A DNA stretch of 64,000 nt from Escherichia coli (GTDB taxonomy: Bacteria; Pseudomonadota; Gammaproteobacteria; Enterobacterales; Enterobacteriaceae), in assembly GCF_016026235.1 (NCBI RefSeq), contig NZ_CP065613.1; one strand, given 5' to 3'. The translations under genes were made by a program, and so were the position numbers. Below, piece by piece: positions 30,880 through 49,932 of this stretch; within the stretch, counting starts at the first letter, position 1, and every line of letters starts with the position of its first letter. The notes under the pieces are model-generated. The model had not been told where the DNA came from. It saw nothing but the letters and a program-made list of their open reading frames with translations, and did no database searches.

Positions 30880-31242
30880 GGGGCTGATTCTGGATTCGAC
30901 GGGATTTGCGAAACCCAAGGTGCATGCCGAGGGGCGGTTGGCCTCGTAAAAAGCCGCAAAAAATAGTCGCAAACGACGAAAACTACGCTTTAGCAGCTTA
31001 ATAACCTGCTTAGAGCCCTCTCTCCCTAGCCTCCGCTCTTAGGACGGGGATCAAGAGAGGTCAAACCCAAAAGAGATCGCGTGGAAGCCCTGCCTGGGGT
31101 TGAAGCGTTAAAACTTAATCAGGCTAGTTTGTTAGTGGCGTGTCCGTCCGCAGCTGGCAAGCGAATGTAAAGACTGACTAAGCATGTAGTACCGAGGACG
31201 TAGGAATTTCGGACGCGGGTTCAACTCCCGCCAGCTCCACCA
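30880..31242 (+). ncRNA. ssrA: tmRNA (SsrA), 363 nt
   Basis: Begins GGGGCTGATTCTGGATTCGACGGGATTTGCG, contains the tag-encoding segment GCAAACGACGAAAACTACGCTTTAGCAGCTTAA (ANDENYALAA) and ends with the tRNA-like GGTTCAACTCCCGCCAGCTCCACCA. Confidence 0.97.
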
Positions 31243-31445
31243 AAATTCTCCATCGGTGATTACCAGAGTCATCCGATGAAGTCCTAAGAGCCCGCACGGC
31301 GCAAGCCCTGCGGGCTTTTTTGTATCTGCAATTTGTCCCGCGAAGTCCGAAGAGAACTAATTAAATCCGAACCTTTTAGGCCCATTGATAGGCCCAACGA
31401 AAAGCTCTATTGTTTTCGTTGGGCCTAAACGCATGGAGACTCCCC

Positions 31446-32687
31446 ATGGCAAGAAAAACCAAGCCGTTAACCGATACGGAAATCAAAGCCGCCAAACCTA
31501 AAGATGCCGATTACCAGCTGTATGATGGTGACGGGCTTACTCTGTTAATCAAGTCCAGTGGTAGTAAGCTCTGGCAGTTCCGTTACTATCGACCTCTGAC
31601 AAAGCAGCGAACCAAGCAGAGCTTCGGTGCCTACCCTGCCGTCTCACTTTCTGATGCGCGTAAACTCAGAGCCGAATCTCGAGTTTTATTGGCAAAAGAT
31701 ATTGATCCTCAGGAACATCAGAAAGAACAGGTGAGGAATTCTCAAGAGGCCAAAACCAACACCTTCTTGTTAGTTGCCGAGCGTTGGTGGAATGTGAAGA
31801 AAGCCAGCGTGACAGAGGACTATGCCGACGATATCTGGCGCTCGCTTGAGAGAGATGTTTTTCCAGCAATCGGTGATATCAGTGTCACTGAGATTAAGGC
31901 TCATACTCTGGTTAAAGCAGTTCAGCCGGTTCAGGCTAGAGGTGCATTAGAAACTGTTCGCCGTCTTTGTCAGCGTATTAACGAAGTCATGATTTATGCG
32001 CAGAACACGGGCCTGATTGATGCGGTTCCCAGCGTAAATATCGGAAAAGCGTTCGAGAAGCCTCAGAAAAAGAACATGCCGAGCATCCGGCCTGATCAAC
32101 TGCCTCAACTGATGCAGACGATGCGAACAGCAAACATCAGCCAATCAACACGATGCCTGTTCATGTGGCAGCTTCTTACTATTACCCGTCCTGCCGAAGC
32201 CGCTGAAGCTCGATGGGATGAGATCGATTTTGAAGCTAAAGAATGGAAAATTCCTGCAGCTCGAATGAAGATGAACCGGGACCATACGGTTCCATTGTCT
32301 GATGGAGCTCTCGCTATTCTGGCAATGATGAAGTCACTCAGTGGTGGCCGAGAATTTATCTTTCCTAGTCGAATCAAACCAACCCAGCCGATGAATAGCC
32401 AAACAGTGAATGCAGCACTCAAACGTGCTGGATTGGGAGGCGTTCTCGTTTCTCATGGCTTGCGTTCTATCGCCAGTACCGCCCTTAATGAACAAGGCTT
32501 CCCACCTGATGTTATTGAAGCGGCGCTGGCTCATGTGGACAAAAATGAAGTACGTCGCGCTTACAATCGCAGCGATTATCTTGAGCAGAGACGCCCGATG
32601 ATGCAGTGGTGGGCAAACCTTATAAAAGCGGCAGATAGTATTCCTACCGTTTGTAACGAAGTAGCAGGTCTTAGATTGGTTGGGTAG
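31446..32687 (+). CDS. intA: P4/CP4-57-type tyrosine integrase (site-specific recombinase)
   Basis: ORF 31410..32687; start taken at MARKTKPLTDTEIKAAKPKDADYQLYDGDGL (413 aa); sits directly 3' of ssrA, the classic attachment site of CP4-57-like elements; C-terminal HGLRS and Y-containing catalytic region. Confidence 0.9.
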   Translation: MARKTKPLTDTEIKAAKPKDADYQLYDGDGLTLLIKSSGSKLWQFRYYRPLTKQRTKQSFGAYPAVSLSDARKLRAESRVLLAKDIDPQEHQKEQVRNSQEAKTNTFLLVAERWWNVKKASVTEDYADDIWRSLERDVFPAIGDISVTEIKAHTLVKAVQPVQARGALETVRRLCQRINEVMIYAQNTGLIDAVPSVNIGKAFEKPQKKNMPSIRPDQLPQLMQTMRTANISQSTRCLFMWQLLTITRPAEAAEARWDEIDFEAKEWKIPAARMKMNRDHTVPLSDGALAILAMMKSLSGGREFIFPSRIKPTQPMNSQTVNAALKRAGLGGVLVSHGLRSIASTALNEQGFPPDVIEAALAHVDKNEVRRAYNRSDYLEQRRPMMQWWANLIKAADSIPTVCNEVAGLRLVG

Positions 32688-32698
32688 TGGATTTAAAA

Positions 32699-32750
32699 TC
32701 TCAAGTGATTATCCTTAGAAAAGATAATCACTTGAGATAATTGAAATTTT
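32699..32750 (+). terminator. hairpin terminator after the integrase gene
   Basis: Perfect inverted repeat TCTCAAGTGATTATC-cttagaaaa-GATAATCACTTGAGA followed by AATTTTTATT. Confidence 0.7.
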
Positions 32751-33162
32751 TATTGGATTAAGGCAAAACCATGCTACATTAATTAAGATAGTTTAAAATA
32801 GCATTTATATAGATATATGTTACACTTTCTAAAAAAAATCGCGAAAAAGGAAATATGATAACAATCATATTTTAGAAGTTGACATAATACATACCAAATT
32901 TATCGTGCTATGAACACTACATTAACCTTTTATTTTTTCATAACAAGCAAGCAAAAATGATGAATACAATAGAAATTCACCGCAAACAACCAAACATAAC
33001 TCTAGCCCAGCACATACAAAATAAAAGACTACAACTTGGAAAAGAAATCTCCAAAAAATACAAGATTTATCTCGACTTAAGGTTCTGGTTTTTTTTAGAG
33101 ATATTGAGCTTGGGAATAATAACGATCGAGACTTAATTAATCTCCTACAAAAAATAAAGTAC

Positions 33163-34032
33163 TTGGTTGATAATGGAAAGGTAGTTTGCCCTATATCTGC
33201 TACTGTTTTTTTAGAACTAATGAAACAGAACGATATCGAAACAAGGATGGCCACAGCCAAAATTATTGATCATCTGAGTTTTGGAGTTACACTTATAGCT
33301 AGTCATGAGAGAGTCAAACAAGAATTATGTAATGCTACGTATTCGATTTTGGGAGCTAAGGACAGCATTCCAATTGATCAATTAGTATGGACCAAACTAA
33401 GTTATATTTTCGGCGATTACCATCCATACGATACATCTTTCGATGCAGCTGAAGAACTGATCATTCAGAAATCTTTTTTTGATCATATGTGGGATATTTC
33501 ACTCGTTGAAATGATGAACCATATCAACTATGAAAGCTGGGAACAATTTGATTGGCAGAAAACAACAGAAATGCTTAACTTGGCTAATAAAGAGCATACC
33601 AATGAGCTTAGAAGCTATCAACACGCATATCGTATTGAGTTCGACGGAGTGTTAAGCCTTTTCAACGAGCAATTAATCCAGATATTCAAAGAGGCTTACA
33701 AGGCCGGATATAACAATGATGAAATTAATAATAAGAAAAAATCAAAAAATGAAAAACTTAAACAATTTGCACAATTAGTCCGTACTTTACATATTGGTGC
33801 CTCTTGTCATGCTGCAGTAAGATGGGATCAGAAACGCCAGCTCAATGGTAATGATCTTTTAGATTTTCATCATGCCGAAGCAGCTTTAGGATATTGTGAT
33901 TTATTTTTGACTGAAAAACCTTTGAAAGTTCTAGTGAGTCAAGAACATTTGGGATTAAGAGAATTATTCTCATGCTCTGTTGAGTCATCAGCTAGTGAAG
34001 GGCTCAAGATACTTAACATGTGTAAAATATAA
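33163..34032 (+). CDS. hypothetical protein, AT-rich island cargo (no family recognised)
   Basis: 289 aa ORF (TTG start in the track; the true start may be an internal ATG); low GC; convergent with the 565 aa gene. Confidence 0.55.
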   Translation: MVDNGKVVCPISATVFLELMKQNDIETRMATAKIIDHLSFGVTLIASHERVKQELCNATYSILGAKDSIPIDQLVWTKLSYIFGDYHPYDTSFDAAEELIIQKSFFDHMWDISLVEMMNHINYESWEQFDWQKTTEMLNLANKEHTNELRSYQHAYRIEFDGVLSLFNEQLIQIFKEAYKAGYNNDEINNKKKSKNEKLKQFAQLVRTLHIGASCHAAVRWDQKRQLNGNDLLDFHHAEAALGYCDLFLTEKPLKVLVSQEHLGLRELFSCSVESSASEGLKILNMCKI

Positions 34033-34068
34033 AAATTAAGAATATTTCATATTACTAAATCTATAAAC

Positions 34069-34100
34069 TTTAGAGGTCATTTTCATAATTGAAGCTGACC
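34069..34100. terminator. hairpin between convergent island genes
   Basis: AGAGGTCA-ttttcataattgaagc-TGACCTCT inverted repeat. Confidence 0.5.
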
Positions 34101-34185
34101 TCTCACCCGCTCGATAAGTCTCACACAACTATGACTAAGATTGGCAAGTATTATCCCCCCCAATTATCATCTATTACAAAAATAG

Positions 34186-35883
34186 CTAATCATCTATTTT
34201 AAAATCAAAAATCCTTAAAATATCATTAAATGATGCTTCACATTGCCCCACAAGGCTAGTGAAGTGTGCACGTAGATTTTCATGATCGGTACGCGCTTCT
34301 AATATCGCTTTCTTCTTTTTTTCTGTAGAAGCATGTCCGCGTACTTCGGTTCGTAGAGCATGCAGTTTTTGCATAGGCTGAACTAACATTTTCGCTTCAT
34401 CTACTGTTGCACTTTTAGCAATAAGAGCTTCTTGTAGTATGCGCAAGGATCCCCATTTGGGTTCAATGATTCGGCCCTCATATTTAGCAATTTCACTCAG
34501 TGGCTTTGGTAAAAAGCCCTCAACTAAATACTGATCAAGCGCAAGGATTTCATCACCCCACTCTTTGATTGAATCTGTTGCAGGATACTGAACAGCGCCA
34601 CTCAATACTGTACCCCGTGGCTTCCACCAGGTGGGAGGATTCTTGTCCATTAGCGAAATTTTGTGTTTGAGTGCCAACAATGGTTCATTGGACAGATACC
34701 ATTCCCCAACAATATCCGTCTGAAATGCACGCTTAGAAATTGTTCCTTTTGGCCATTCATTGAAGGCTTGCCAATAGAGCTGTTCTTCATAAGGTAAATG
34801 AGCCAAATCACCAATGTATACATGAACTTGCCCGGCCTCATTAATATCATAGGATTTTAAATACCAAGCATTTCGACAAGCAATACTTCTTTCATCTAAA
34901 GTATATTTTTCTGGATCCGCCTTGAAACGATGTAACACTTCTGCTCTAAAAAAGGCAGGTGAAACTTCCCACGGTAATTTATTTTCTTGAAAATAGTTAG
35001 ATAGTGAGTCTGGTCCGCAAGATGTTTCAACATTGCAGCTATTTTTACGATCGTATATTTTAAAGGTTGCGTATTTCCTTTTAGATGGATTATCTTCATC
35101 CTTCCATGCTTTTACCAGACCGCGCACAGTTACTTGAGGGCGAATGATCATTACACCATTACAGTAACTGGCTTCCCCGTTAATACCACCATGATAAAAA
35201 AGACTCCCTTCATCTTTAGTATATCTGTTGATATTCCCCCAGCCAGCAAAATTACCCCATCTGACACGTGTAAAATCAAACTTTAAAACAAGACATGTTT
35301 TGGATAAAGCCATGAATGTATCTAAATCCTTTCTCTTAATAGTAACTATATCCAGATAGTTAAAAGGAGGTGAAATATTTTTGTTAATTATCCTGATTAC
35401 ATCTTCAATATCACCCCGTTCATCGAGACGACAATATGCATTTCTTTCTGGCAAGTAATATAACCCAAGGCTGTGCACAAGTTTCTGACTTAATTCGATA
35501 GGTGCACGGCCTTCTTCAACGCCATGAAACCTACGACGATAAATTAATGCCTCTCCCCCTTTGAACACCCCATCTAAAGGTGGCTCAAGATAAATACGAT
35601 GTCCTTGACCTCCACCCCATGACTTTTGAATCTTCCAACAATACTCAACATCCATACGCATATTCTGCAATGCCCATCTATCTGCTGTAGTAACATTTTT
35701 CTCTAGAGCTAGCGCGCCATGAATTAGGACACTATTTCCAATCGCGTAGATAACCACTTCATCATTTTGAGCATTTTCTTTCAGAAATTTAATTGACCTT
35801 TCAGCCTCTATTAACCAAGCGGCATCATCATTCTGTGGCTTTTCCGAAATAGCATGAAGCTCTGTGAATTTAAATTGGCTCAT
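34186..35883 (-). CDS. hypothetical protein, 565 aa (island cargo; no family recognised)
   Basis: Long uninterrupted ORF starting MSQFKFTELHAISEKPQNDDAAWLIEAERS...; AAGGA upstream of the ATG; lies directly downstream of the STAND operon. Confidence 0.7.
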   Translation of the reverse strand: MSQFKFTELHAISEKPQNDDAAWLIEAERSIKFLKENAQNDEVVIYAIGNSVLIHGALALEKNVTTADRWALQNMRMDVEYCWKIQKSWGGGQGHRIYLEPPLDGVFKGGEALIYRRRFHGVEEGRAPIELSQKLVHSLGLYYLPERNAYCRLDERGDIEDVIRIINKNISPPFNYLDIVTIKRKDLDTFMALSKTCLVLKFDFTRVRWGNFAGWGNINRYTKDEGSLFYHGGINGEASYCNGVMIIRPQVTVRGLVKAWKDEDNPSKRKYATFKIYDRKNSCNVETSCGPDSLSNYFQENKLPWEVSPAFFRAEVLHRFKADPEKYTLDERSIACRNAWYLKSYDINEAGQVHVYIGDLAHLPYEEQLYWQAFNEWPKGTISKRAFQTDIVGEWYLSNEPLLALKHKISLMDKNPPTWWKPRGTVLSGAVQYPATDSIKEWGDEILALDQYLVEGFLPKPLSEIAKYEGRIIEPKWGSLRILQEALIAKSATVDEAKMLVQPMQKLHALRTEVRGHASTEKKKKAILEARTDHENLRAHFTSLVGQCEASFNDILRIFDFKIDD

Positions 35884-35927
35884 GAGTAATATTCATATCC
35901 TTTTACTTTATCTATAACTGACATCAC

Positions 35928-35976
35928 TTATAAGTTATAAGTTATAAGTTATAAGTTATAAGTTATAAGTTATAAG
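35928..35976. repeat. perfect tandem heptanucleotide repeat (TTATAAG)x7
   Basis: 7 exact head-to-tail copies read directly from the sequence, in the 120-bp gap between the stop of the 482 aa gene and the start of the 565 aa gene. Confidence 0.95.
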
Positions 35977-36002
35977 TTCCCCTTATGAATTAAGAAATAA
36001 CA

Positions 36003-37451
36003 TCAAACAAATACCACCCCTCTCGTAATTTTTTCACTGAATCTGCCATAACTTCCATTACGATGGAATCTACGTACTTGCCAAGAGTAAAATGAGCGCA
36101 ATGACCCGGTATTTGTTATGTTTCTCTCGCGATATGTAGTGCCTCGCGATATGAGGGCTGTCCCACAATTACCTTGAATTTGCCCTAGCCTAGCTGGCCC
36201 CCATCCAGCATTCCAATAATAAAGCTCTGCGACGACTAGGTCCTTTAACTTAACCTGTAGACGCCCATCATGCGGGATGACTTCAAGAGAATTTTCTATG
36301 CCTGGCATCGTCGGTAAAAATAACCGGGATGGATACAAATCATGTTGTAGGTATCCTATCCGACCAAAATCGAGCATTCCCGCCAATGGCCAAGCCATAC
36401 AAGTTTTATTCACCAGTTGTTCAAAAGTTGGTGGAGTTATTAAGGTTGTTGTACTGAGTGGATCCGGAGCTTGGCTGGAAAGCATTTGTTCACGTGTCCA
36501 GAACGATTCAATATGGGATGTCAACGAGTCCGCTCCTTCCTTATCACTGCTTACAGTTTGTGACCACCGAACAATCGACAACTCTACGCACTGTTCCATT
36601 GACATTGAAATGGGCGAGCTAAATGCAATTAGCTCGTCTCCTGGGTTTGCCGCCTCTACTTGAGCAAAGAAAGTTCGCAATGAAGCCTCGATCGCCTTAC
36701 TATCACTTTTGAATTCAGTCGATACTGAGAGCCATTCGGGACGATAAGGTCGAAGAAAAGCCAAAGTTGGATGGATAGGCAACGCCAAGAGAGAATGTTG
36801 CTCGGTCAACTCCATTGGTATCCTCCAGATGTGTCTAGCCACAGCTAACGTGCGAAGATAAGCGGAAATTACGCGAAGGGCTGTTCGAGAGGAAAAATGA
36901 GGGGCAAAGCCCTCTCCCAAGGGCCGAATGAAATATCCTGCATCCCCTTGGTACGGTGCATTTGGATATGCCGTCCGGTTTTTTGTCCATTCGAAGGCCA
37001 TTTGTCGAATAAATGGACAGCGGGTAAAAGTTTCCAACTTGCTAATGGTTATATGGAAGATTCTTGGCAAATCCGTACCTTGAACACTATCAAAGTCATC
37101 GGGAATGATGAAGTCTTCTGGAGCTAGTTCCAAATCAGTATTCATGAGCAGAATCGATAACCCAAAATCTTTCATCAACAATGATGAAAGTGGTGAGGGT
37201 AGAAGAATATTCTCTGCCAACAAAGTCGTAGGAAAGTAGTTAAACTCTTTAATTGCCATCCAGAAAATACATAATACTTCGACAACCTCGGCTTCAAGTT
37301 TGCGCGAGCGCAGCAATTGAAGCAGCAATGATTCGGTTTCAGCTTTCGTCTCAGGCTCTCCCAGTCGAGCGGCAAGCTCCTGGATAGTCCACCACCGAGC
37401 AGACGTAGCAGGCCATCCAAGACGGGCAATAAGAATGCGAAGATCGTTCAT
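36003..37451 (-). CDS. hypothetical protein, about 482 aa, third gene of the STAND operon
   Basis: ORF 36003..37496; start more likely the ATG at 37451 (MNDLRILIARLGWPATSARWW...) because it overlaps the stop of the upstream gene as ATGA. Confidence 0.7.
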   Translation of the reverse strand: MNDLRILIARLGWPATSARWWTIQELAARLGEPETKAETESLLLQLLRSRKLEAEVVEVLCIFWMAIKEFNYFPTTLLAENILLPSPLSSLLMKDFGLSILLMNTDLELAPEDFIIPDDFDSVQGTDLPRIFHITISKLETFTRCPFIRQMAFEWTKNRTAYPNAPYQGDAGYFIRPLGEGFAPHFSSRTALRVISAYLRTLAVARHIWRIPMELTEQHSLLALPIHPTLAFLRPYRPEWLSVSTEFKSDSKAIEASLRTFFAQVEAANPGDELIAFSSPISMSMEQCVELSIVRWSQTVSSDKEGADSLTSHIESFWTREQMLSSQAPDPLSTTTLITPPTFEQLVNKTCMAWPLAGMLDFGRIGYLQHDLYPSRLFLPTMPGIENSLEVIPHDGRLQVKLKDLVVAELYYWNAGWGPARLGQIQGNCGTALISRGTTYRERNITNTGSLRSFYSWQVRRFHRNGSYGRFSEKITRGVVFV

Positions 37452-40400
37452 TTCACTTCCTGGGCGATTGGCTCGAGCAGTTTTGACATCCAGCAAGGTG
37501 GTTCTAAGGGCAAGGTCCGAGTATCCTCAATCACACAATTAACCATCGTCTCTGTGAACTTTACAGCTTCATCAATGCGATTTTGCTTAACGTAGAAATA
37601 GACCATAACTTCCGATGGAGCTAGGCGTGACGACACTGGCTCATCAAACATGTTGTAGGTTGTTACGGCCACAAATTCATCACAGCGCTGCGGATAATTT
37701 TGGACAACCAGGTCGAGTCTTTTGCAAGTCACATCCACGTTCTCCATGTAACCAATCCATCCCCCATTACGGATCTGTGCATGAACAAGATACTTCCAAG
37801 CTGCAGTTAAGCCACTTAATCTACGTTTTGTTTGAAATGCAAACTCGGAAAGATGTAGAGCTTCCCTCATCCATTTGTTGTTTTTTGCAAATAAAATCTT
37901 ATCCAGTTCGACGAGTAAATTTCGCCCCTGCTTTTGGCTTTCCCAGTGCTGATACCAAGTACGGAGAAGTTTTGGACGCTCTTTGTAATATGGTTCCAGA
38001 ACTTTGAGCAAGTCTTCCAATTGTTCAGGTCTAAAGACCGTCACATCACCTTCATAAGGTTTATTGTCAGCGTCACTACTTGAATTTTCGTGGCGTTGTA
38101 AACAACCAATATCCCATCCATTATGCTCTTCAAGAATGCGAAGCCGCTCGGAAGCAGTTGTACAACCATCCTCTACAAGTTGTTGAAGTGTATCCCGAAT
38201 TTCGGGATGAAGGCCTGTGCGCATTAGAGCATCCAGAGGCCACTCTTCAATGATTCCCTGTTTGATGTAGGCCTGCATACTGCTCTCGGCCAAAGCCCAG
38301 TCACCCACACATGTATGCTCTTCAAATTTTATTACCAATGCGGAAGGCTTCAGCTTTGCCAGTAGCCGATCTGCTTCAGCAAGAACATGTCTCGTACCCT
38401 TACCATCGGTGTAATCCAAAACATGGTGTATTTGCGGCGCAATTTTAGCCAGTAACCGACAAGCTTCTTTCGGCACTACATCAACTAAATAAGCGATGGC
38501 ATCAACCGTATTACTCAGTGTCGGATCTTTACGATGTCCGTATCCAGTGGTCAATTCCCACGTCTGCGTGCAAAGCTCACGAGCCTCCGAATTCAGTTGA
38601 TGGGAGATCGCTATCGCACAGAGTTGTAATGGTATTTGAAGATGTACACTGGTCTCATTTTGAATGTCTGCATCAAGTAACAAACGTTGAGCGCCAATGA
38701 ATGTTATAGCCGCTTCGTCGGCCATTCTGATCAATGAACCAGATGCGTACTGAGTGCGGAATGACGCACTATCGAACCAAGCGCATTGCAACGCAGCATC
38801 AATAGTCGATTGGGAAAGTACCACAGCACTAGTTCCCGAAAGCAGAACACTACCAATATATATATCGCAAGCAATACGGTGTAGTGCCGCTTGAAAGTCC
38901 GCCGTTGCCGATTTTCTAAAATAACTTTGTCTAAATCGCCGCGATTCAACAGGCTCGAGTAATTCATACAGCTCATGGAAGTTGATGAATTCCCCACACC
39001 ACCATCGTTGGGCTATTTGTGCACCAATTCCGGACAGTACATTGAGATAATCAGTAATATCTTCTCTATCTTCGTACATAGGGGCTTTGATGTGCTCGAA
39101 GTTTGTTTGCCCTTCTGCAATCATACAAAGATTCAGATGTACGGCACCAAACAGCCAGTGGTGCGTGAGAGTTGCCAAATTATCTTTGTGTTTGTAATAG
39201 CTGTCGCTTATCCAGTTCACCGGGATTGGTTGGCTCGAAGGAGTTGAGGTTTTGATTAACGCGACCTCTATTGCAGCCACAAATGGAGTTCTGACAAGTT
39301 CGTCGAAGTCCTCTCGCTCGGTCACTACTACCCCTGCAACCGCAGCCGCTCGTATACAAGCATCGCTAATTATGTTCTTTTTCTGTCCATCGGGTAGAGA
39401 AGCTGCTAGCAACATTAAATCATCCAAATTACCTTTTTGAATCAGCATTTGAACGCGAGGTAACCATATGTCCGGGCTATTTTTGTCGACTAACCAAGCG
39501 AGATTTTCAGATGTATCAGCGATAACGCCAAGCTGTGTAAATGCACTGGCCAGAAACAAGAGTTCATCAGAACCAGCCCTTGAATTATATTTATTGGAAA
39601 ATTGGCATAGGGCTCTGAACCGATGAAAGGCTTCTTCACCGCAAATTTCTGCCTGAATAATATCCCCTCGAGACAGTAAGGCCAGACCAAGTGCAACAAC
39701 GTGTAAAATATCCGTTTCATGCCTAGAGGCTATAGACTCACGTATCACACTTTCCTCTGAGGTTAGTGTCAATGTAAAAGATATGAGCCTAGCCAGATCG
39801 CTATCCTGCATCTGAAATTGACTTCCATCAACCATACGAGCTTTCAGATGCGCCAACCGGTAGGCATCTGAAAAATTTGCAGTTTCAAGCGCAGCGCTCA
39901 GGGCTTCTGACAATAATATCTCAAATAAAGCTTCTGAATATCCTTCTTTTAAGCGACTCATGATCCAGTCACGAGTTAAACCTGTAATGAGATTGTTGGG
40001 GTTACCAAGCTTCGCTTGAACTGTCCATAACCAGTTCACTCGTAGTGAAGTAGGTGCCTGATGTTCAAGCCAGTCTGCAATAACAGGCATTAATTCATTG
40101 ATTCGACTCTCATAGTCATCAGTTGCACGTACGAAAACAGCCAAACTTTCATGGAAGACTTTAAGACCAGCCACAGACGAATGGAGCAAATGCTCTACTT
40201 TATCCACATCTGGTTCCACCGCCTTAATTTTGGTAGCAATCTCTGAGAAGGCTGTCTTAGGCCAGAAAAAAGTAAAGGCACAGATAAGCCTTAGCGTATC
40301 CTTTTGGCTTGGAGCAAGACGTTCCCATAGAGATGCATAGTAAAATCGGGCGTCTTGGCTCAAGTCTCCCTTCAACTGCTCAATATCCCAACTGGATAGT

Positions 40401-41875
40401 CTGCGACCCGAATGTTTCAATTCTGATGTAGCATAAATAACGTGAAGAGGATGGCCATTAGTTTTCTTACGAAGAGCGGATGCTGCACTCTGCAGTTGTT
40501 CTTCAATTTGTTCTTCACTTTCAAAACCAGTTGTAAGCCAGCCTTCTTGAACTGTTCTACGTAGATAAGAAAGTACTGCACTCTCAGACATTGCAGGCAA
40601 TGTATGCCACTCAGATTTTGGTGCAAAGGCGAGCAAATCCGCTGGCAACTGTTCGTCATTTACCGGTTGAGTGCCGACGAGCAGTACCATATTTTCCGGG
40701 CAGGGAATTACCTGACAGAAAAGGTCATCTAGTGGTCGTTTATCCTCAGCGTTGATACGCCAGACATGATCCAAACCATCAAGAATGAGCACAAATGGCT
40801 TTCCCAGTACTTTGTAGTGGGCAGCACATGCCTCCAATTGTGTATGTAAGCCTCCACCAGTTTTCGGGACATCCTCGTGAAACTGTTGGATCTGCGCCAG
40901 AATGGATTGCTCGACAATGTAGCTATTAACCCGGTCGCGGCCTCGCTCGGTTGTCGACAGAAAATAGTGATGGCGAACCGTTGGGATACCTTTTTCTGCA
41001 AGCGTGTCGCACAGTGCGCTCAGGTAAGTACTCTTTCCGCGTCCTGGTGGACCAGTCAGCACAATTGCCTTTCCGGTAGCATTAATTGTGCTCTGGACAA
41101 ATTCTTGATGGAATATTTCATCAGGAACCTCATAACCTTCTGGAACAACAAAATCCTCTGGCAAAGGAGCTGGAGGTGAAGCTCGCAAGATGGTTCCAAC
41201 CTCTGCCAGTTTAATCCAGCCATCCGGCGCAGGGAGATTTTTTTGCGTTGCCCAATTCAGAGCCACATATTTTAGATTAGCGATTCCCTCTGGCGTACCA
41301 TGCAGTCGAAGGCGAGCATCAACTTCATGCTCCAATGCAAGATAGCCCTTATCGCTGTGTCGAATACATAATTGTCTGAAGAAAAGTTTGCATTCCTCAA
41401 CGCCGCCGAGTTCAACTTCTACCAAGGTGCGCTGAGGTTCTGGGATCTTAGAAGGATCAATCCGGTCTCGTTCCAGACAAACCTCAATAGCAGCATCTGG
41501 TCGGCGATTCGTTATGAGCGAAATTTCGCCAATACGCACTGGATCAAGTTGTTTGAAAGCATCGAACCATTTGCGTAGCATCGATCTCGACCGCTCTGTC
41601 TTGCCCGTTTTCTCCAGCATCCAATCCCAAGATAGAAGATGCGTCTCAGAATCTGGGGTGAACTTGATCTGCTGAAGGTCAACGAAGCCATCACTTCGTT
41701 CGATGACGATATCATCTAGTCCCTGTGGTGCTTCGTTTTCATTATCACATTCAAATTTCACGCGGCTATAGCGCGTCGGCGCATCAAGCCAATCGCACAG
41801 GACCTTAAGGCCCTGGCGATTTTGATAAATATAACCAGCTGCAGTGATGGCGGTTTTCTTAATATCTTCACTCAT
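37448..41875 (-). CDS. STAND-class P-loop NTPase (NACHT-like) with N-terminal nuclease-like domain and long C-terminal helical region; candidate anti-phage sensor/effector
   Basis: 1475 aa; Walker A VLTGPPGRGKST, Walker B FVLILDGLDHV (hhhhDGLD, NACHT-type); N-terminal ~250 aa contain ...GLDDIVIERSDGFVDLQQIKF (D...QxK, restriction-endonuclease-fold-like); C-terminal ~1000 aa helix-rich with no enzymatic motif. Confidence 0.8.
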   Translation of the reverse strand: MSEDIKKTAITAAGYIYQNRQGLKVLCDWLDAPTRYSRVKFECDNENEAPQGLDDIVIERSDGFVDLQQIKFTPDSETHLLSWDWMLEKTGKTERSRSMLRKWFDAFKQLDPVRIGEISLITNRRPDAAIEVCLERDRIDPSKIPEPQRTLVEVELGGVEECKLFFRQLCIRHSDKGYLALEHEVDARLRLHGTPEGIANLKYVALNWATQKNLPAPDGWIKLAEVGTILRASPPAPLPEDFVVPEGYEVPDEIFHQEFVQSTINATGKAIVLTGPPGRGKSTYLSALCDTLAEKGIPTVRHHYFLSTTERGRDRVNSYIVEQSILAQIQQFHEDVPKTGGGLHTQLEACAAHYKVLGKPFVLILDGLDHVWRINAEDKRPLDDLFCQVIPCPENMVLLVGTQPVNDEQLPADLLAFAPKSEWHTLPAMSESAVLSYLRRTVQEGWLTTGFESEEQIEEQLQSAASALRKKTNGHPLHVIYATSELKHSGRRLSSWDIEQLKGDLSQDARFYYASLWERLAPSQKDTLRLICAFTFFWPKTAFSEIATKIKAVEPDVDKVEHLLHSSVAGLKVFHESLAVFVRATDDYESRINELMPVIADWLEHQAPTSLRVNWLWTVQAKLGNPNNLITGLTRDWIMSRLKEGYSEALFEILLSEALSAALETANFSDAYRLAHLKARMVDGSQFQMQDSDLARLISFTLTLTSEESVIRESIASRHETDILHVVALGLALLSRGDIIQAEICGEEAFHRFRALCQFSNKYNSRAGSDELLFLASAFTQLGVIADTSENLAWLVDKNSPDIWLPRVQMLIQKGNLDDLMLLAASLPDGQKKNIISDACIRAAAVAGVVVTEREDFDELVRTPFVAAIEVALIKTSTPSSQPIPVNWISDSYYKHKDNLATLTHHWLFGAVHLNLCMIAEGQTNFEHIKAPMYEDREDITDYLNVLSGIGAQIAQRWWCGEFINFHELYELLEPVESRRFRQSYFRKSATADFQAALHRIACDIYIGSVLLSGTSAVVLSQSTIDAALQCAWFDSASFRTQYASGSLIRMADEAAITFIGAQRLLLDADIQNETSVHLQIPLQLCAIAISHQLNSEARELCTQTWELTTGYGHRKDPTLSNTVDAIAYLVDVVPKEACRLLAKIAPQIHHVLDYTDGKGTRHVLAEADRLLAKLKPSALVIKFEEHTCVGDWALAESSMQAYIKQGIIEEWPLDALMRTGLHPEIRDTLQQLVEDGCTTASERLRILEEHNGWDIGCLQRHENSSSDADNKPYEGDVTVFRPEQLEDLLKVLEPYYKERPKLLRTWYQHWESQKQGRNLLVELDKILFAKNNKWMREALHLSEFAFQTKRRLSGLTAAWKYLVHAQIRNGGWIGYMENVDVTCKRLDLVVQNYPQRCDEFVAVTTYNMFDEPVSSRLAPSEVMVYFYVKQNRIDEAVKFTETMVNCVIEDTRTLPLEPPCWMSKLLEPIAQEVK

Positions 41876-41879
41876 AGCA

Positions 41880-44800
41880 TCAAGGTATGTTTAGTTCGGT
41901 TTTGATCCAAGTGTCCAAAGTGTCTACACGTACAAACTGGGTCGGAACAGGATATGGCGGATGAACCATCCAGTAGTACACATCGCGGCTTACATAGAGT
42001 TCAATATTCCTTAAAGGAACACTCTCTGGCTGTGGCCACTGGAGCAGTTCAAGCAACCTTGAACGGTGAGTTTCGAGAAATTTTCTGCGGTCTAAAATAC
42101 GACTGAATTGTCCTGCCCTGTCATTCTCTGCCTTGCCAAATATCCGATCACGAAGACGACGGCTATCTTTCATTGTAAATGGCGGCTGGTTGTACTTACA
42201 CTCTACTGTCACGAGCAAATTGCTTTCCGGCCAGTATGCAAAAACATCGAAATCACCAACGTCATCAAACTTCTCTTCCCGGAATCTTCTAAAGAAATCA
42301 ATACCTCGCTGAACATAAGGTGTATGCCTGCGGAATATTTCCTCTGTACGAAGCTCGAGACGCTTTTCAATACTCTCCTTAACCTCGCGAATGACTGGCT
42401 TAACATGAGGCCAATCAAATTCCGCAGGCAAATAACCGTCTCGTACCGCCGACATCCAAATGTACATTGCCCGGCTTGCCGACTCTGCCCCCCAACGCAA
42501 ATCGGCACCATCAATTACCAGCGGCTTGATAGTGTATCGATCGATTCGCTTATTCCGCTCCCAATATGGAATATCTCCTTCATCGATATCCCTTCCAACG
42601 AGCCTACGAACTCCTACTTCCGAAAGAGTCAGAAAAGCAACAATCTTTTGGGCCTCAGAATAGTCAAGCCTATCAATGCTATCAGCCAACCCTCGCGCAA
42701 GGCGATCAGGTGCTGCAGCATAAGACAAGGAAAGTTCGTTCCCGAATCCATATCGTTGAGCTTGCGATAACACAGCGAGAACAGTGAGCATATTCTGAAG
42801 CTCGAACCCCAAATCGGTGATAAAAGCTTTTTTGAGTTTCTCTGAAGCCAGCAACCCCTCTGGCTCTCCTTCCACCGCATCCTTGTCATTTGTGCCAAGC
42901 CCCAACCTGGACTTCGCATACTCCTTTGCAAAGGTAGCCTCACGATCACCAAAATCTGTCGAATAGAAAACTTCTGGAATATATGAGTCGTCGATCTCAA
43001 CACCACCCACATCTATACCATTGTGAAGGGTATCACTGGCACCAGTCAGCACCATGAACCAATCAACCAAGCCAACTAATTCTCGTAGTACATCCTCTGT
43101 AACTCTATCTACACCATTTGAAGATAAATTGACGGTCTTCTCTAGTAGATATCGATAATGGCGGGCCTTATCACCGAATTCTTTGCGTGCATGTTCTATC
43201 GCATCAAGTCTGTCATACTCAACTTCATGAGCAAGACTCAAACGGGCTCGTTGGATTCTAGTCCTCTCAGTAACAAGGAGGGCATCGTGTTGCTCGATGA
43301 ATGCCTGCAGAAGCTGATGCCTATCAAATGCTGCAAGTCGATTCTCAATGTGAAGACGCATGCGAGCACTGGAAGGATCAATCCTGGCCTTGGCATCTGA
43401 CAGTTCATACCTGCCAGGAATAAACCCAAGCCCCATGATTTCTGCGGCCAGTTTTCTACGGGCAAGCTTGTAATCGGTAGGCGAAGGAATTATAGGGTAT
43501 ACATAGTCGGGGACATCAATATTACGGGTCATGACTTTTAAATGATAACGAGCCGCTTGCGACGCTATATGAGTAAATCGTTGAGCAAATTCATCAGGCA
43601 TCTGCAAACCAAGTACTGCATGACATTTTTCGAGCGTTTCCAGTAAGCAACGAACCTCGAATGATCCATCCTTGGAAAGATTTAATCCAGCAAGCACTGC
43701 ACGTGTATCAACTTGAACGTGAAATACATCGGGGTTGTGGGAATCCGGGATGACTGAAGTCACCACGTGTTTAAATTCGTCTAAAGAAGAAGGACTCTCT
43801 TCAGCTTTAACCAGACTAGATGGTTCAGGGGAGCACGTAAACAAAACATGCGGCTGCCTAAATAGAGAAATATCAGACATCATTTTTCTGCAGCGATAGC
43901 TACAGTCGGCCAGAAGTTGGGCAAAAAGGTCTATCAGACGTCCATCTTCAAAGCGTAATTCTTTGGTTATTTCTATTAATGTTTGAACGGTACAGGAACC
44001 AATCGATGTTGAGTATGCCATCGCTTTGTGATGACGCGATTCAAGTCGAACGACACCTTCAGTTGAAGAACTCAACGTCCATCCGATAGAGCTGTCTGGA
44101 AATACCTTGGGTGCACGAGACCAGAATTCTGTCAATATCTTGAAGCGCCAAGAAGTCCCCCAGTGAGGGTCTAGCCCAATGAAGTTAGGTGCAATCGCAC
44201 CTTCGACAAGCACACCATGCATGTCTTTGAATGATGCAAACAGGTCTACTGTTCCACGGGAAAATGGGCTGAGCGTCCCCTCTTGAGCATCTGTAAATTT
44301 CCAATAACTTTCTAATTCTTCCAGATCGTTGAGACTATCAAAAATCGTGATGAAATCCGCTAATGGAAACAAACGAGTTGGCTTTGAGGGGAGATTGATG
44401 GAATTAAACGCAGTACCCGCGAGTGTAACGACAATAACGATGTGAAGCTCATCGACGCTAGGTTCTGCACCAACTCTAGATAGAGAAAGGAAACGTCCAT
44501 CATCAAGACGGAAGAAAATCGGCGATCCACGACTCACCTTGGCGTATATGCTTTCCGCTGCGTTTGACAGGCGGTCATTAGATGTATGGTCACATGTGCA
44601 AATGAGATATATCCCAGAATTACCCAGTATAATACAACTGATAGGCAGGTCTTTGCAGGCGGTGCCGTCAACATACAGAGTCAAAGGCCCTATAAGGGTT
44701 CTTTGGAATCGCTCAGCGACAAACTCTGCAAGTTTCCTGTGCGTAGAGGGGCTAATCCCGTTCAGATTTTTGTTAGCCCAATGGTCAATAATGAGACCCG

Positions 44801-45662
44801 GTGCACTGCGTACTGACATTGGTATCCATACCCTATCCATCTCGACAGCAAGGAAAGGTAGCGCCATGCCTTGCATCACTGCATTTCCGAACGCATCCGG
44901 TTTCAGCGGTGCTTTGAAAGTGCCAACACGAGTATCGAACGTACACCCTGCTTTCTTTCGGCGGTTCGCTAGCTCATTGCCAAGTTGTTGAAGCAAAGAC
45001 TTGCAAGTCAACCAGAAGTCTTCAGTAGCTAGTTCAACATCAGCACATTGGGCCTCGGTGTTGACAGAGAGCATCAACTCAGGAATCGATTCGATGATCT
45101 GCGCTTGCAGCGCAATGGCAAGATCCATATGGGCTTGTGCTTCTGGAATATGAGCATAGGTAATGCGAAATGCTTCTACGAAGTCAGACATTCTCTCAAT
45201 GCAACTCCCGTAGAACATAGGGACGAAGTCTTGACCAAGCCGTACTTTGATTTGCCCCCAATCAGCCTCGGGGGAAAAATCCTCAAGCATTGGGAATTCA
45301 GGCCATGATGCGTATAATTCTTTTGTAAATACTTTAAAATCTACATAGCTATCAATCGATATACCTACCTGAGACTCAAATGGCAGCTCTAAAAGGACAC
45401 ACCAAGCAAAAATATGCTTTATGGGGCTACCTGTATTGGCTGGCCAGAGTTCGGAAGTAAATAATGCAACTGCTACGTCGAGGGTTTTGTATCGGCGAAA
45501 TAAATTCTGGGTGGCTTCCAGATGCTTACAAAAGTATGTGTCTTCACCTACCCCATTCGTAAACAATTCACGATATCTGGACATATCGTGTATCAAAGAA
45601 TCATAATCAACCTTTTGCTCTGTTAGTTTTCTTTCCCGCTTTTCACGTGACTTCCTACCCAC
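41880..45662 (-). CDS. large protein (1260 aa) with C-terminal PD-(D/E)xK-like nuclease motif; first gene of the STAND operon
   Basis: GTG start preceded by GGGAGGA Shine-Dalgarno; no Walker A found on reading; C-terminus has GDFDVFAYWPESNLLVTVECKY (D-x15-ExK); stop lies 4 nt before the start of the STAND gene. Confidence 0.75.
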   Translation of the reverse strand: MGRKSREKRERKLTEQKVDYDSLIHDMSRYRELFTNGVGEDTYFCKHLEATQNLFRRYKTLDVAVALFTSELWPANTGSPIKHIFAWCVLLELPFESQVGISIDSYVDFKVFTKELYASWPEFPMLEDFSPEADWGQIKVRLGQDFVPMFYGSCIERMSDFVEAFRITYAHIPEAQAHMDLAIALQAQIIESIPELMLSVNTEAQCADVELATEDFWLTCKSLLQQLGNELANRRKKAGCTFDTRVGTFKAPLKPDAFGNAVMQGMALPFLAVEMDRVWIPMSVRSAPGLIIDHWANKNLNGISPSTHRKLAEFVAERFQRTLIGPLTLYVDGTACKDLPISCIILGNSGIYLICTCDHTSNDRLSNAAESIYAKVSRGSPIFFRLDDGRFLSLSRVGAEPSVDELHIVIVVTLAGTAFNSINLPSKPTRLFPLADFITIFDSLNDLEELESYWKFTDAQEGTLSPFSRGTVDLFASFKDMHGVLVEGAIAPNFIGLDPHWGTSWRFKILTEFWSRAPKVFPDSSIGWTLSSSTEGVVRLESRHHKAMAYSTSIGSCTVQTLIEITKELRFEDGRLIDLFAQLLADCSYRCRKMMSDISLFRQPHVLFTCSPEPSSLVKAEESPSSLDEFKHVVTSVIPDSHNPDVFHVQVDTRAVLAGLNLSKDGSFEVRCLLETLEKCHAVLGLQMPDEFAQRFTHIASQAARYHLKVMTRNIDVPDYVYPIIPSPTDYKLARRKLAAEIMGLGFIPGRYELSDAKARIDPSSARMRLHIENRLAAFDRHQLLQAFIEQHDALLVTERTRIQRARLSLAHEVEYDRLDAIEHARKEFGDKARHYRYLLEKTVNLSSNGVDRVTEDVLRELVGLVDWFMVLTGASDTLHNGIDVGGVEIDDSYIPEVFYSTDFGDREATFAKEYAKSRLGLGTNDKDAVEGEPEGLLASEKLKKAFITDLGFELQNMLTVLAVLSQAQRYGFGNELSLSYAAAPDRLARGLADSIDRLDYSEAQKIVAFLTLSEVGVRRLVGRDIDEGDIPYWERNKRIDRYTIKPLVIDGADLRWGAESASRAMYIWMSAVRDGYLPAEFDWPHVKPVIREVKESIEKRLELRTEEIFRRHTPYVQRGIDFFRRFREEKFDDVGDFDVFAYWPESNLLVTVECKYNQPPFTMKDSRRLRDRIFGKAENDRAGQFSRILDRRKFLETHRSRLLELLQWPQPESVPLRNIELYVSRDVYYWMVHPPYPVPTQFVRVDTLDTWIKTELNIP

Positions 45663-45959
45663 TTCATATCCTCCCTGTATGCATACGTTGACAGTCTATA
45701 CGGTATCGAAGCATAGAAATTATTAATGCGTATCATAATGAATATCTTGAGTCACTTACTGTACCGCCCTCACAAAAGTGCATAGCCTCAAACTATCAAA
45801 CACATCCGACAAATTGTTACATTTATATTATTGCAACCATAAAACCCAATAATTTGATAAATAATAAATTTTTCTTATTTCAACTAGTCACACTTCAGAT
45901 TGGTTTACATAACTTTAGCGCAAATCACTGTTTGCCAATAATCACTTCTTCAAAAGCGG

Positions 45960-46195
45960 CTTTCACATTTTCATCCTCCGCTATCCGCCCTGATCAGTTA
46001 CCACAGCTAATGCAGACAATGCGAAATGCCAACATTATTTTGCCTACTCGATGCTTGTTCATGTGGCAACTTCTAACTATCTCACGACCCGCAGAAGCGG
46101 CAGAAGCTCGTTGGGATGAGATCGATTTTGAAGCTAAAGAATGGAAAATTCCTGCAGCTCGAATGAAGATGAACCGGGACCATACGGTTCCGCTA
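45960..46195 (+). pseudogene. truncated second copy of a P4-type integrase (internal fragment only)
   Basis: Encodes ...IRPDQLPQLMQTMRNANIILPTRCLFMWQLLTISRPAEAAEARWDEIDFEAKEWKIPAARMKMNRDHTVPL, matching residues ~215-285 of the intact integrase at 31446..32687; 80 bp (46112..46191) are identical to 32214..32293; no N- or C-terminal part present. Confidence 0.85.
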
Positions 46196-46622
46196 GGTTC
46201 GCGAGGCCTGAGCTTGGCGCAGCTATCGCCAGCAGAATCACCGCTGATGCAAGTGGCGCAGGCGCAGTTAAAGCATCTGTTACCCGCACATCTGATGGCT
46301 TCATTTTCGCCGTTTTTTAGTCAAGCGGGACACACTTCCTAGCCACAGCAAACGGGCGCTGAGAGAGTGGGAATGGCCGCAGAAGGTGCGGGTGGTCGCG
46401 GCCAGTCAGCCGCTCCTACCACCGGTGATCCAGGAAGGCATGTTTGACGCGGTCAGTGAAGCGCTTTACCAAGACCCTTGGCTGAACATTGATTACCGCA
46501 ATGCTCAAGATACTCGCCGTCAGGCGGAGGTGATGCCCCTTGGTTTTAGTCCTACAGGGCTCACGTCTGCAAAGCTAATGGGAAGAGTGTGGTACTCACT
46601 CTCTCCCATATAATCTTCCAAA

Positions 46623-46850
46623 CTATGGCGAAACAGGCGTTAGCGGTTTTTTTACTTTGCTCAAAATCCAGGCATCAATCTCGGATTCTAGCCACCCCAC
46701 CGTCTTTGCTCCCAGTTTCACCCTTTGGGGAAATGTCGGATCATGACGATCAGAACTAGGGTCAAGCCAGTCGTATACCATTGAACGCCCAATGCCTAAC
46801 TTCTTGACAAGTGCAGGTACACGAAGGATTTTTACAGACTTTGGTTCCAT
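46623..46850 (-). CDS. alpA: AlpA-family prophage transcriptional regulator (HTH)
   Basis: 75 aa MEPKSVKILRVPALVKKLGIGRSMVYDWLDPSSDRHDPTFPQRVKLGAKTVGWLESEIDAWI, the AlpA pattern. Confidence 0.8.
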   Translation of the reverse strand: MEPKSVKILRVPALVKKLGIGRSMVYDWLDPSSDRHDPTFPQRVKLGAKTVGWLESEIDAWILSKVKKPLTPVSP

Positions 46851-46964
46851 TAAAGAGCTTCCTCTCTTGGTTTGCTTAGGATGGAAGTCAGACTATCTAC
46901 TGATGCAACTGTGCGACATACGGCTGCAGTACTTCATTTTTTACGGAGCTTAACTGATTGAATA

Positions 46965-47687
46965 ATGGATAATTTTAGTTTTAACGATTTTATCGTTGAT
47001 TTGAAAACTATGTTCAATAATAAGAGCGCAAGCTTGTCCAATAGACTCATGGCGGCTGACCGGGAGCAGGAAAAGGTTATTTCAGATGCAAATGAATATC
47101 ATGAGTTTGTACTATCGCTGGTTGAAAGCATGCTTACGAACCCGGTAGTACGCCGTAGGTTTGATGATCAAGTCTACAGAATGTCATTTGATGAACCAGA
47201 CACGGTTAGCGAAACTATAAGTGAGCTTGTTTTCCTGGCTGATGTTAACTGGCAGCTAGGGCTTGGGCTTCTGAATACGAATAAAAATGAAGCGATAAAG
47301 TGCCTACTCTTAGCTATTGAATACCTTGATTACTGTCGTGGTCTTGAAGATCAAGAATTATGGCAACAGCAACAGACCACAAAATTAGATGTTCCGGCGC
47401 AGAGGGGTAGAAGTAAAGCTGCTCGCTTTGATCCCATTAAAGCCAAAATTATCAGGCTTTTGCAGGAAGCTTGCCCCTCAGACGGATGGGATACTAAATC
47501 AGAAGCTTTGAAGAGCATAGAGAATGGGATTAATGAACTGAAATGGCCATCTGCACGTGATCAGAACAATCTGCCCAAAACCGGAGCTGAAATATTTGCA
47601 ATGAAGATACGCCAGGTTGAGGTCTGGTCAAGTCAGGATCAGAAAATTAAAGCTGCATTTGATAGTGTCGTAAAGCCTAAAAAATAG
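46965..47687 (+). CDS. hypothetical prophage protein, 240 aa
   Basis: Clean ORF MDNFSFNDFIVDLKTMFNNKSASLSNRLMAADREQEK...; no family recognised. Confidence 0.6.
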   Translation: MDNFSFNDFIVDLKTMFNNKSASLSNRLMAADREQEKVISDANEYHEFVLSLVESMLTNPVVRRRFDDQVYRMSFDEPDTVSETISELVFLADVNWQLGLGLLNTNKNEAIKCLLLAIEYLDYCRGLEDQELWQQQQTTKLDVPAQRGRSKAARFDPIKAKIIRLLQEACPSDGWDTKSEALKSIENGINELKWPSARDQNNLPKTGAEIFAMKIRQVEVWSSQDQKIKAAFDSVVKPKK

Positions 47688-47757
47688 ATGTACTTGAGGT
47701 CTAATATGCTGGCAGTTTAAGCCTTAAAAGCCAAACTGCCATCTCACAACGCGCATG

Positions 47758-48342: not shown

Positions 48343-48406
48343 GTTAATACCTGAATAAATAATTAATATTGAGGTGAGTAAGAATAAATAACCATACAAT
48401 TAACCA

Positions 48407-49645: not shown

Positions 49646-49932
49646 GACAATACCTCCAGAAAATGTTGTTTTGATAATTGAAAACTAATCTGGAATGCGA
49701 TCGCAAGTCAATATGAAAAACTGATATTTAGTCTAGTCAGACAGCGTTGGACTAAATTAGTCAAGTGGCAGCTTCTGGTATTTTCATTCGCCTGTGCTTT
49801 CTTTATAAAAACACAGACGAGTAATGTCAGTACGGAGATATACTGCCAGGTAATATGATTTAAATAATTCTCAGATATATATAACCTCAGTGAATTTCCA
49901 CCCGTTTTAATCCAACAGGTCATCCCCACCGG

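Follow-up and report, generated by a model that had tools for sequence, protein, structure and literature searches.

The minus-strand gene at positions 37448-41875 of the window (the whole 64,000-nucleotide stretch of Escherichia coli DNA analysed here) encodes a 1475-residue protein consisting of a Cap4-type nuclease domain, a NACHT NTPase module and a helical tail. Together with an obligate partner, p482, it likely belongs with Avs and bNACHT among the antiviral STAND (bacterial NLR-like) proteins, acting by the mechanism proposed below. The gene was delimited from the open reading frame list, its ATG start and its translation, and its product is identical to E. coli WP_001287788.1, annotated as a 'NACHT domain-containing protein'. 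Ten E. coli chromosomes carry this DNA at 100% identity, and it is a rare island gene in the species. Because its length is that of the family norm (1473-1475 residues), the gene is considered intact. More than 1300 homologues were found, and the representatives of 50%-identity clusters (n=375 at E<1e-30) align over their whole length at identities as low as 27%; the reading frame is therefore not a chance one. Residue conservation was counted over 117 family sequences, in which the motif residues are invariant or almost so.

The N-terminal domain (residues 1-235, 41171-41875, minus strand) is a PD-(D/E)xK endonuclease domain of the Cap4 type. Its predicted catalytic motif, D54-D55 ... Q69-x-K71 (41663-41716, minus strand), is placed by conservation and by the AlphaFold2 model (pLDDT 88.6 for the protein), and lies within a stretch quoted in an earlier note on this DNA, GLDDIVIERSDGFVDLQQIKF (residues 52-72), which is exact in the translation. 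D55, Q69 and K71 are each conserved in 116 of the 117 sequences and D54 in 113. E42 (41750-41752), present as E or D in 116, probably also belongs to the site. In the model D55 sits just ahead of strand 2 and Q69 and K71 within strand 3; the site residues fall on strands 1-3, and the acidic and lysine residues of this predicted site are intact. The Pfam Cap4/DUF4297 family (PF14130) matches the window protein weakly, with an E-value of 0.0072 for the isolated domain and 0.1 in context; it is matched at E<=1e-3 by 15 of 29 diverse relatives (best 9.5e-12) and is the sole family found. Two Cap4-type models of PADLOC match the window protein at 2.8e-8 and 1.2e-7, and the predicted fold resembles that of solved Cap4. 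The earlier note had proposed a nuclease of Mrr/Cap4 type. The Cap4 half of that proposal agrees with Pfam, PADLOC and the fold, whereas the Mrr half finds no counterpart, the Mrr family being absent from the Pfam matches and Cap4_nuclease the only nuclease family among them.

The central NACHT/STAND NTPase module (residues 256-600, 40076-41110, minus strand) was identified by Pfam and by fold matches and consists of a nucleotide-binding domain, a helical domain and a winged helix. The NACHT family PF05729 matches residues 271-443 over model positions 3-165 of 167 (i-E 5e-12), and its precomputed annotation is present on essentially all homologues. The Walker A motif GPPGRGKST (G275-T283, 41027-41053, minus strand), quoted earlier as AIVLTGPPGRGKSTYL, and the Walker B motif FVLILDGLDH (residues 361-370, 40766-40795, minus strand), quoted as FVLILDGLDHV (D366-H370), both read exactly so in the translation. 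Each of G280, K281, S282 and T283 in the former and of D366, G367, L368, D369 and H370 in the latter is found in 117 of 117 sequences. The NACHT-specific Walker B signature is D[GAS]hDE (10.1101/2022.07.19.500537); the small residue and first acidic residue of D366-G-L-D369-H370 fit it, whereas in place of the final Glu there is an invariant His. Also invariant in the family are R301, H302, H303, R315, Q403, G474-x-P476-L477 and H575. The last of these, in the winged helix, is plausibly equivalent to position H443 of NLRC4, and mutation at the H443-equivalent position hyperactivates bNACHT25 (10.1101/2022.07.19.500537). Fold matches of the module include MalT, ZAR1, NRC2, NOD2, Apaf-1, CED-4 and ORC/Cdc6, and this NLR/Apaf-1/MalT-like fold with helical and winged-helix domains makes it a STAND NTPase, as had been read from the motifs, rather than an ABC or SMC ATPase. 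The best match of this region in the defence libraries is Avs1b (PADLOC PDLC02159, E 4.4e-11). Identity with Avs1 was rejected because the match spans only ~420 of 1924 profile positions, those of the NTPase, and leaves effector and sensor unmatched.

The remainder of the protein (residues 601-1475, 37451-40075, minus strand) forms an all-alpha region in the AlphaFold2 model and is presumed to be the sensor. Residues 588-1200, the modelled portion of the ~1000-residue helix-rich tail described earlier, contain helices only, with a pLDDT of about 90. The repeats expected there did not appear: profile self-alignment detected none in residues 600-1200 (best off-diagonal probability 3%). Pfam scans of the protein, including one of residues 700-1475, gave no match in the C-terminal region, and no similarity was found to any sensor with a known ligand. 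Column identity in this region is 0.78-0.82, compared with 0.85 in the NTPase. It is thus conserved like the NTPase, whereas the C-termini of the bNACHT01 clade are reported to be fast-evolving. Taken as a whole, the effector-NTPase-sensor layout put forward in the earlier note is supported, with the role of the sensor presumed.

The closest structural relative is SeAvs3 of Salmonella enterica (PDB 8dgc), whose chain 8dgc_A is the top Foldseek match (E 1e-18), widely ahead of the others. In the predicted model the window protein shares with Avs3 both its overall fold and its order of Cap4 domain, STAND module and long helical sensor. The link to Cap4 and Avs3 structures runs only through this fold comparison, since sequence searches of the solved structures with the single protein, a family profile and an N-terminal profile returned nothing similar. 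That SeAvs3 is by far the best structural match, shares the domain order and, with p482 included, is of comparable total length would also fit a divergent Avs3 orthologue sensing the large terminase subunit of phages. Such orthology is improbable. Identity to SeAvs3 is 12-14%, Pfam assigns the NTPase of the window protein to NACHT, and the distal 480 residues form a separate gene in most members of this family but part of a single chain in Avs3, for which large terminase is the ligand. PADLOC and NCBIfam searches with the window protein and five diverse relatives gave no Avs3 match, although each library may not contain an Avs3 model; both do detect Avs2 in a neighbouring gene (E=0 and 3.4e-234). 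Sequence models of Avs and bNACHT proteins gave no match beyond generic NTPase or nuclease domains.

Other known systems share parts of this architecture. SeAvs7 is a Cap4-STAND-TPR sensor of the major capsid protein, whose Cap4 domain is kept sequestered in the apo protein, with a tetramer forming upon activation (10.64898/2026.01.04.697583). Its Cap4 effector, STAND NTPase and helical sensor correspond to those found here by description, there being no Avs7 among the listed PDB matches. bNACHT25 and other REase-NACHT proteins likewise carry an N-terminal effector of restriction-endonuclease fold on a NACHT module and occur in E. coli accessory genomes. However, the effector of bNACHT25 has been called Mrr-like and the present one is of Cap4/DUF4297 type, and bNACHT25 is a single gene in Kibby et al. 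whereas the window family has an obligate second gene. In CBASS, Cap4 (E. cloacae 7yib, A. baumannii 6vm6) is switched on when its SAVED domain binds a cyclic oligonucleotide, and the Lamassu nuclease LmuA (9ux8) is switched on by the SMC-like LmuB/C complex; the nuclease described here differs from both in being attached to a NACHT NTPase.

The partner gene p482 (482 residues, WP_000999054.1) occupies 36003-37451 on the same strand, and its start codon overlaps the NACHT stop codon (ATGA, as read from the sequence). A homologue lies immediately downstream of the NACHT gene in each of the 22 full-length species loci from GTDB and in one further locus (L014), even where NACHT identity falls to 31%. 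Of 41 long representatives, 39 carry p482 fused to the NACHT protein (a fused representative, P0112, a Duganella protein of 1953 residues, is 58% identical), and in about a third of relatives the two are fused. The two proteins are one system. Searches of p482 against Pfam, PADLOC and NCBIfam gave no match. Its AlphaFold2 model, built from 46 close homologues, reaches a pLDDT of 56, with residues 1-235 confidently helical and the C-terminal half unusable. Foldseek gave no significant match for this model; the top one, 8dgc at E 0.033, serves as a hint only. A membrane role was rejected, the maximal 19-residue hydropathy being only 1.26.

We infer, as a guess, that p482 forms the far end of the sensor. 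A possible but unlikely alternative is a regulatory role. As an inhibitor or chaperone, p482 would keep the nuclease-NTPase off until infection brought about its displacement or degradation, after the manner of a guard or an antitoxin; as an adaptor, it would present the trigger. Consistent with a regulator, about 64% of full-length representatives have p482 as a polypeptide of its own, translational coupling would give it a fixed stoichiometry like that of toxin-antitoxin pairs, no similarity to known sensor repeats is detectable, and its C-terminal half has beta strands whereas the NACHT tail is all-alpha. However, the in-frame fusion at the C-terminus fits a continued chain better than a displaceable inhibitor, the confident N-terminal half of p482 is helical like the preceding sensor, and the combined length of NACHT protein and p482 matches that of single-chain Avs3.

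Two further hypothetical genes on the minus strand flank the pair and are facultative. The upstream gene, up1260 (1260 residues, 41880-45662), has its stop codon separated from the NACHT start by 4 nt in the sequence, and in two other loci (L039 and L041) the two genes overlap by 8 nt. Near its C-terminus up1260 carries a conserved PD-(D/E)xK-like motif with the invariant pattern DVGD.D..AYWP(8)ECKYNQP. The downstream gene, p565 (565 residues, 34186-35883), has homologues following p482 in Pectobacterium, Serratia and Photorhabdus, and none of its searches against Pfam, PADLOC and NCBIfam gave a match. The functional unit could conceivably be a system of three or four genes (up1260, NACHT, p482 and p565) in which the NACHT protein controls, or is controlled by, up1260, although this is not the favoured reading. 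The tight junctions point in that direction, as do the adjacency of up1260 and NACHT genes in 10 of 22 species loci (in one of them on the other side of the pair, downstream of p482), the position of three of four more distant up1260 homologues, looked up separately, directly upstream of a NACHT+p480 pair (the fourth is not), and a between-species identity of up1260 that tracks that of NACHT.

Against this, the NACHT gene and p482 occur without up1260 in over half of the species loci, which have unrelated neighbours such as Avs2, MkoB, a 508-residue protein or nothing conserved, and in Duganella the fused NACHT-p482 protein stands alone. Conversely, in locus L040 an up1260 homologue adjoins p565 in a setting that lacks both NACHT and p482. 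No match to up1260 was found in Pfam, and none of significance in PADLOC or NCBIfam. The PADLOC Upx profile is matched weakly but recurrently, at E-values of 0.0078-0.054 in four of six family members, below any significance threshold. These matches are always co-linear and near the C-terminus, and the 1260 residues of up1260 compare with 1271 profile positions. Upx is reported to be a single-gene defence system (Gao 2020). The independent occurrence of up1260 and its weak Upx matches suggest that it is an independent co-travelling defence module. Two Pseudomonas genes upstream of the pair (524 and 508 residues) were considered as a split up1260 and rejected for want of similarity; the 524-residue protein is MkoB of Mokosh. 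A more elaborate reading, likewise held with low confidence, is a two-chain bacterial NLR in which p482 is an exchangeable ligand-recognising subunit, with a large sub-lineage wired to up1260 (possibly Upx-related) together with p565. If true, this would be a sensor/executor immune complex of several components and not an Avs of one chain.

The family is spread over Gamma- and Betaproteobacteria, with its cassette residing on ssrA islands, Tn7, ICEs and plasmids. Genes neighbouring it across loci include Gabija-like systems, Avs2, Mokosh and HNH/helicase genes (counts are qualitative). A phage-encoded origin was rejected, none of 50,697 phage records giving a match. Scans of 33-47 kb of the window found fewer promoter-like sites than in shuffled sequence and nothing informative for terminators. 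That the cassette is always mobile-element cargo, and that STAND proteins such as MalT, itself among the fold matches, are regulators, could suggest a role other than antiphage defence: a module for mobile-element maintenance or competition (addiction, or keeping out rival elements) or a regulator of the STAND type. This is very improbable. The protein has a conserved, predicted nuclease active site instead of a DNA-binding output and no HTH domain, known defence systems repeatedly adjoin the cassette, and all nuclease-STAND fusions characterised so far serve in defence (10.1101/2022.07.19.500537; 10.64898/2026.01.04.697583). Activity against plasmids, moreover, would still count as defence.

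For the antiviral NLR-like protein favoured here, a mechanism may be transferred by analogy, on the basis of fold and architecture only. At rest the protein would be a closed, nucleotide-bound monomer with its N-terminal Cap4-type nuclease kept inactive. The all-alpha C-terminal region, extended by p482, would bind a ligand derived from infection, most likely a conserved phage protein. Binding would open the NACHT module and allow it to oligomerise, as in the tetramers of Avs3, Avs4 and Avs7, and the oligomer would gather the Cap4 domains into an active dsDNA endonuclease. Degradation of phage and host DNA by the activated nuclease would then abort the infection.

Avs and bNACHT proteins already represent antiphage proteins of this kind. 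Neither the accession of the window NACHT protein nor that of p482 was found in a literature search or in the supplementary material of Kibby et al., of the 2026 STAND survey and of DefensePredictor. Nothing is overturned, because the architecture and likely mechanism are established for Avs3, Avs4, Avs7 and bNACHT proteins. The family is large and well conserved, and is uncovered by PADLOC and by the NCBIfam Avs models that surfaced here (Avs2 and Avs4), while Pfam covers only the two N-terminal domains of the NACHT protein. For the two genes, NACHT and p482, NCBI's 'ATP-binding protein' and 'multidrug DMT transporter permease' could be replaced. STAND/NLR-like proteins armed with nucleases form a central class in the innate immunity of bacteria for which triggers are known in few cases, and this family provides a defined target for trigger discovery. 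Its naturally split and fused forms of NACHT and p482 also allow the contribution of the far end of an NLR sensor to recognition to be asked.

The NACHT gene (37448–41875, minus strand) is an open reading frame of 1475 codons with an ATG start. Its DNA is 100% identical to the gene for WP_001287788.1 ('NACHT domain-containing protein') in ten complete E. coli chromosomes, and the three motif strings quoted in the earlier note are found in its translation at residues 52–72, 272–285 and 361–371. This confirms the original observation and shows an intact gene. Some trace of the gene is present in 11 of 5426 complete genomes. In one E. coli record (NZ_OY757949.1) the copy is split by IS1203, and in another (NZ_CP065615.1) only the last 415 bp are left, which shows that E. 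coli is still losing the system.

The best Pfam match of the protein is NACHT (PF05729; i-E 5e-12, covering 163 of 167 model positions). NPHP3_N and AAA_16 score below it, and ABC_tran reaches merely E 0.035, at the P-loop. Fold matches of the NTPase include MalT, plant NLRs, NOD2 and ORC/Cdc6. The protein is thus a NACHT/STAND protein, as had been read from its motifs. Conservation was counted over the window protein and 116 cluster representatives no shorter than 1400 aa (117 sequences in all), and K281, D366, D369, H370, R315 and H575 are each present in all 117. The Walker B motif is DGLDH, the invariant His of which departs from the published NACHT signature D[GAS]hDE.

The N-terminal domain had been proposed to be a nuclease of the Mrr/Cap4 type. 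Pfam Cap4_nuclease matches this region of the window protein weakly (E 0.1 in context, 0.0072 for the domain alone). Among 29 diverse N-termini of the family it is the sole Pfam family found, with E<=1e-3 in 15, E<=0.1 in 25 and 9.5e-12 at best. In PADLOC, the window protein also matches three models of Cap4-type nucleases: SAVED_PDDEXK (2.8e-8), Effector endonuclease (1.2e-7) and LmuA (1.6e-5). E42 (E or D), D55, Q69 and K71 are each conserved in 116/117 sequences, and D54 in 113/117. The AlphaFold2 model places D55 directly before strand 2 and Q69-x-K71 within strand 3, a predicted arrangement that is the canonical PD-(D/E)xK geometry. By family and fold the effector is a Cap4/DUF4297 nuclease, unlike the Mrr-type effector of bNACHT25.

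The structure of residues 1–1200 was predicted from an alignment of 65 sequences at 23–88% identity (mean pLDDT 88.6, pTM 0.85). The top Foldseek match is SeAvs3 bound to terminase (8dgc; E 1e-18, 1353 columns), followed by generic AAA+/STAND proteins at ~1e-5 to 1e-6. In the model, residues 588–1200 of the tail consist of helices only. A Pfam scan of residues 700–1475 gave no match, and profile self-comparison of residues 600–1200 found no internal repeat. The helix-rich sequence described in the earlier note is borne out over the modelled residues. Conservation changes little along the chain (nuclease 0.85, NACHT 0.85, tail halves 0.82 and 0.78).

The stop codon of the NACHT gene shares bases with the start of p482, an open reading frame of 482 aa (36003–37451, minus strand): GTGAAATGA. 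Homologues of the NACHT protein fall into two lengths, ~1473 and ~1953 aa, and the extra 480 residues of a fused homologue from Duganella (P0112) are 58% identical to p482. An HMM finds a p482-like C-terminus in 39 of the 41 representatives of 1850–2010 aa (~36% of full-length representatives). GTDB species genomes gave 30 loci. In all 22 of these with a full-length NACHT gene, p482 is the next gene downstream, as it also is in one with a 5'-cut NACHT gene (L014); the other loci are remnants or are truncated at contig ends. This linkage is kept at NACHT identities as low as 31–46%. No match to p482 was found in Pfam, PADLOC or NCBIfam. Its homologues are often labelled 'multidrug DMT transporter permease' by NCBI; as p482 lacks any hydrophobic segment (19-residue hydropathy peaks at 1.26) and has no Pfam match, this name looks like a propagated error. 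The AlphaFold2 model of p482 is confident and helical over residues 1–235 only, and the C-terminal half is the least conserved part in a deeper alignment. The best PDB match of the model is again 8dgc, at a non-significant E of 0.033. Together NACHT and p482 comprise 1957 residues, compared with 2028 in the Avs3 chain. We infer that p482 forms the far end of the receptor, which most lineages have split off into a chain of its own, and conclude that the two proteins are the core of the system.

The E. coli copy lies within a low-GC island (~32000–50000; GC 0.38–0.47, against ~0.50 in the flanks) inserted at the ssrA tmRNA (30880–31242), with an integrase gene at 31410–32687. According to the annotation of the identical E. 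coli locus, CP4-57-like genes come after the island (YfjI, a GTPase, an antirestriction protein, RadC and the YeeU/CbtA toxin-antitoxin pair). Between the integrase and p565 is a 289-aa reading frame (33163–34032, plus strand), 'hypothetical' in the E. coli record, where its start is not that of the longest open reading frame. Near the right end, a tRNA-Met (63088–63163, minus strand; local GC 0.34–0.38) could be the far island boundary or another site of insertion. Plasmids carry relatives in 24 records, among them the megaplasmids of C. metallidurans CH34, whereas a search of 50,697 phage records found none. Homologous cassettes elsewhere (L021:3052-7581, L028:3269-7699, L003:6757-8331, L007:5825-8988 and L038:1024-8739) have as neighbours Avs2 (PADLOC E=0), MkoB of Mokosh (4e-120) and genes for a Gabija-like ATPase and a UvrD helicase; one cassette is carried by a Tn7-like transposon (TnsABCDE) at glmS.

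The upstream gene, up1260 (41880–45662, minus strand), ends 4 nt ahead of the NACHT start codon. Its 246 homologues are all ~1260 aa and unnamed, with no Pfam domains. A homologue adjoins the NACHT-p482 pair in 10 of 22 species loci, in one of these on the downstream side of p482. Three of four remoter homologues, looked up independently, are directly upstream of NACHT and a p482 homologue, with settings that comprise Tn7 cargo in Providencia and, in two, adjoining conjugation genes. The fourth (L040, 8001–13568) has no NACHT or p482, and is directly followed by a homologue (54% identity) of p565, the downstream gene in the window (34186–35883, minus strand), which itself has no family match. 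Homologue positions place the NACHT-p482 pair between up1260 and p565 in E. coli, Pectobacterium, Serratia and Photorhabdus. Given L040, up1260 and p565 may be a separate two-gene unit, with the NACHT pair nested within it in Enterobacterales. The C-terminus of up1260 carries an invariant PD-(D/E)xK-like motif, DVGD.D..AYWP(8)ECKYNQP, and four of six members show weak, recurrent, co-linear matches to Upx in PADLOC (E 0.0078–0.054). It may be a distant relative of Upx, a single-gene defence protein. Where up1260 is missing, the neighbours are a 508-aa protein, Avs2 (PADLOC E=0), Mokosh MkoB or Gabija-like genes, or there is no conserved neighbour. With or without p565, up1260 may be a defence module that travels with the pair, or else an optional accessory to it. 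In two Pseudomonas loci (L016:7754-8005 and L020:7742-8005) the stretch from up1260 to the NACHT start codon retains a fragment that matches just the final ~85 residues of the 508-aa protein seen upstream in other loci, which suggests that recombination exchanges upstream modules immediately 5' of the NACHT gene.

Beyond the domain assignments, the conserved active-site residues, the link to p482 and the genomic context, we infer a most likely mechanism by analogy with relatives that have been solved or tested. The resting protein would be autoinhibited and monomeric; an infection-derived ligand would be bound by the helical tail and p482; the NACHT module would drive nucleotide-dependent oligomerisation; and the Cap4 domains would gather into an active DNase, aborting the infection. 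This proposed mode of working resembles Avs3, Avs7 and REase-bNACHT proteins. Cap4 domains are tetrameric in SeAvs3 and SeAvs7, and are sequestered in apo SeAvs7 (10.64898/2026.01.04.697583). The antiphage REase-NACHT protein bNACHT25 needs its nuclease for toxicity, and is made hyperactive by mutation of a winged-helix histidine (10.1101/2022.07.19.500537). The family does not belong to any named Avs type at the sequence level, an Avs1b match being at domain level only, with no Avs match in NCBIfam. The literature searched yielded no experimental work on it. With 375 clusters at E<1e-30, it is very probably already within published STAND surveys, though unnamed. The finding is solid and testable, yet no surprise to specialists; the features worth pursuing are the split or fused distal module, p482, and the frequent 1260-aa companion.
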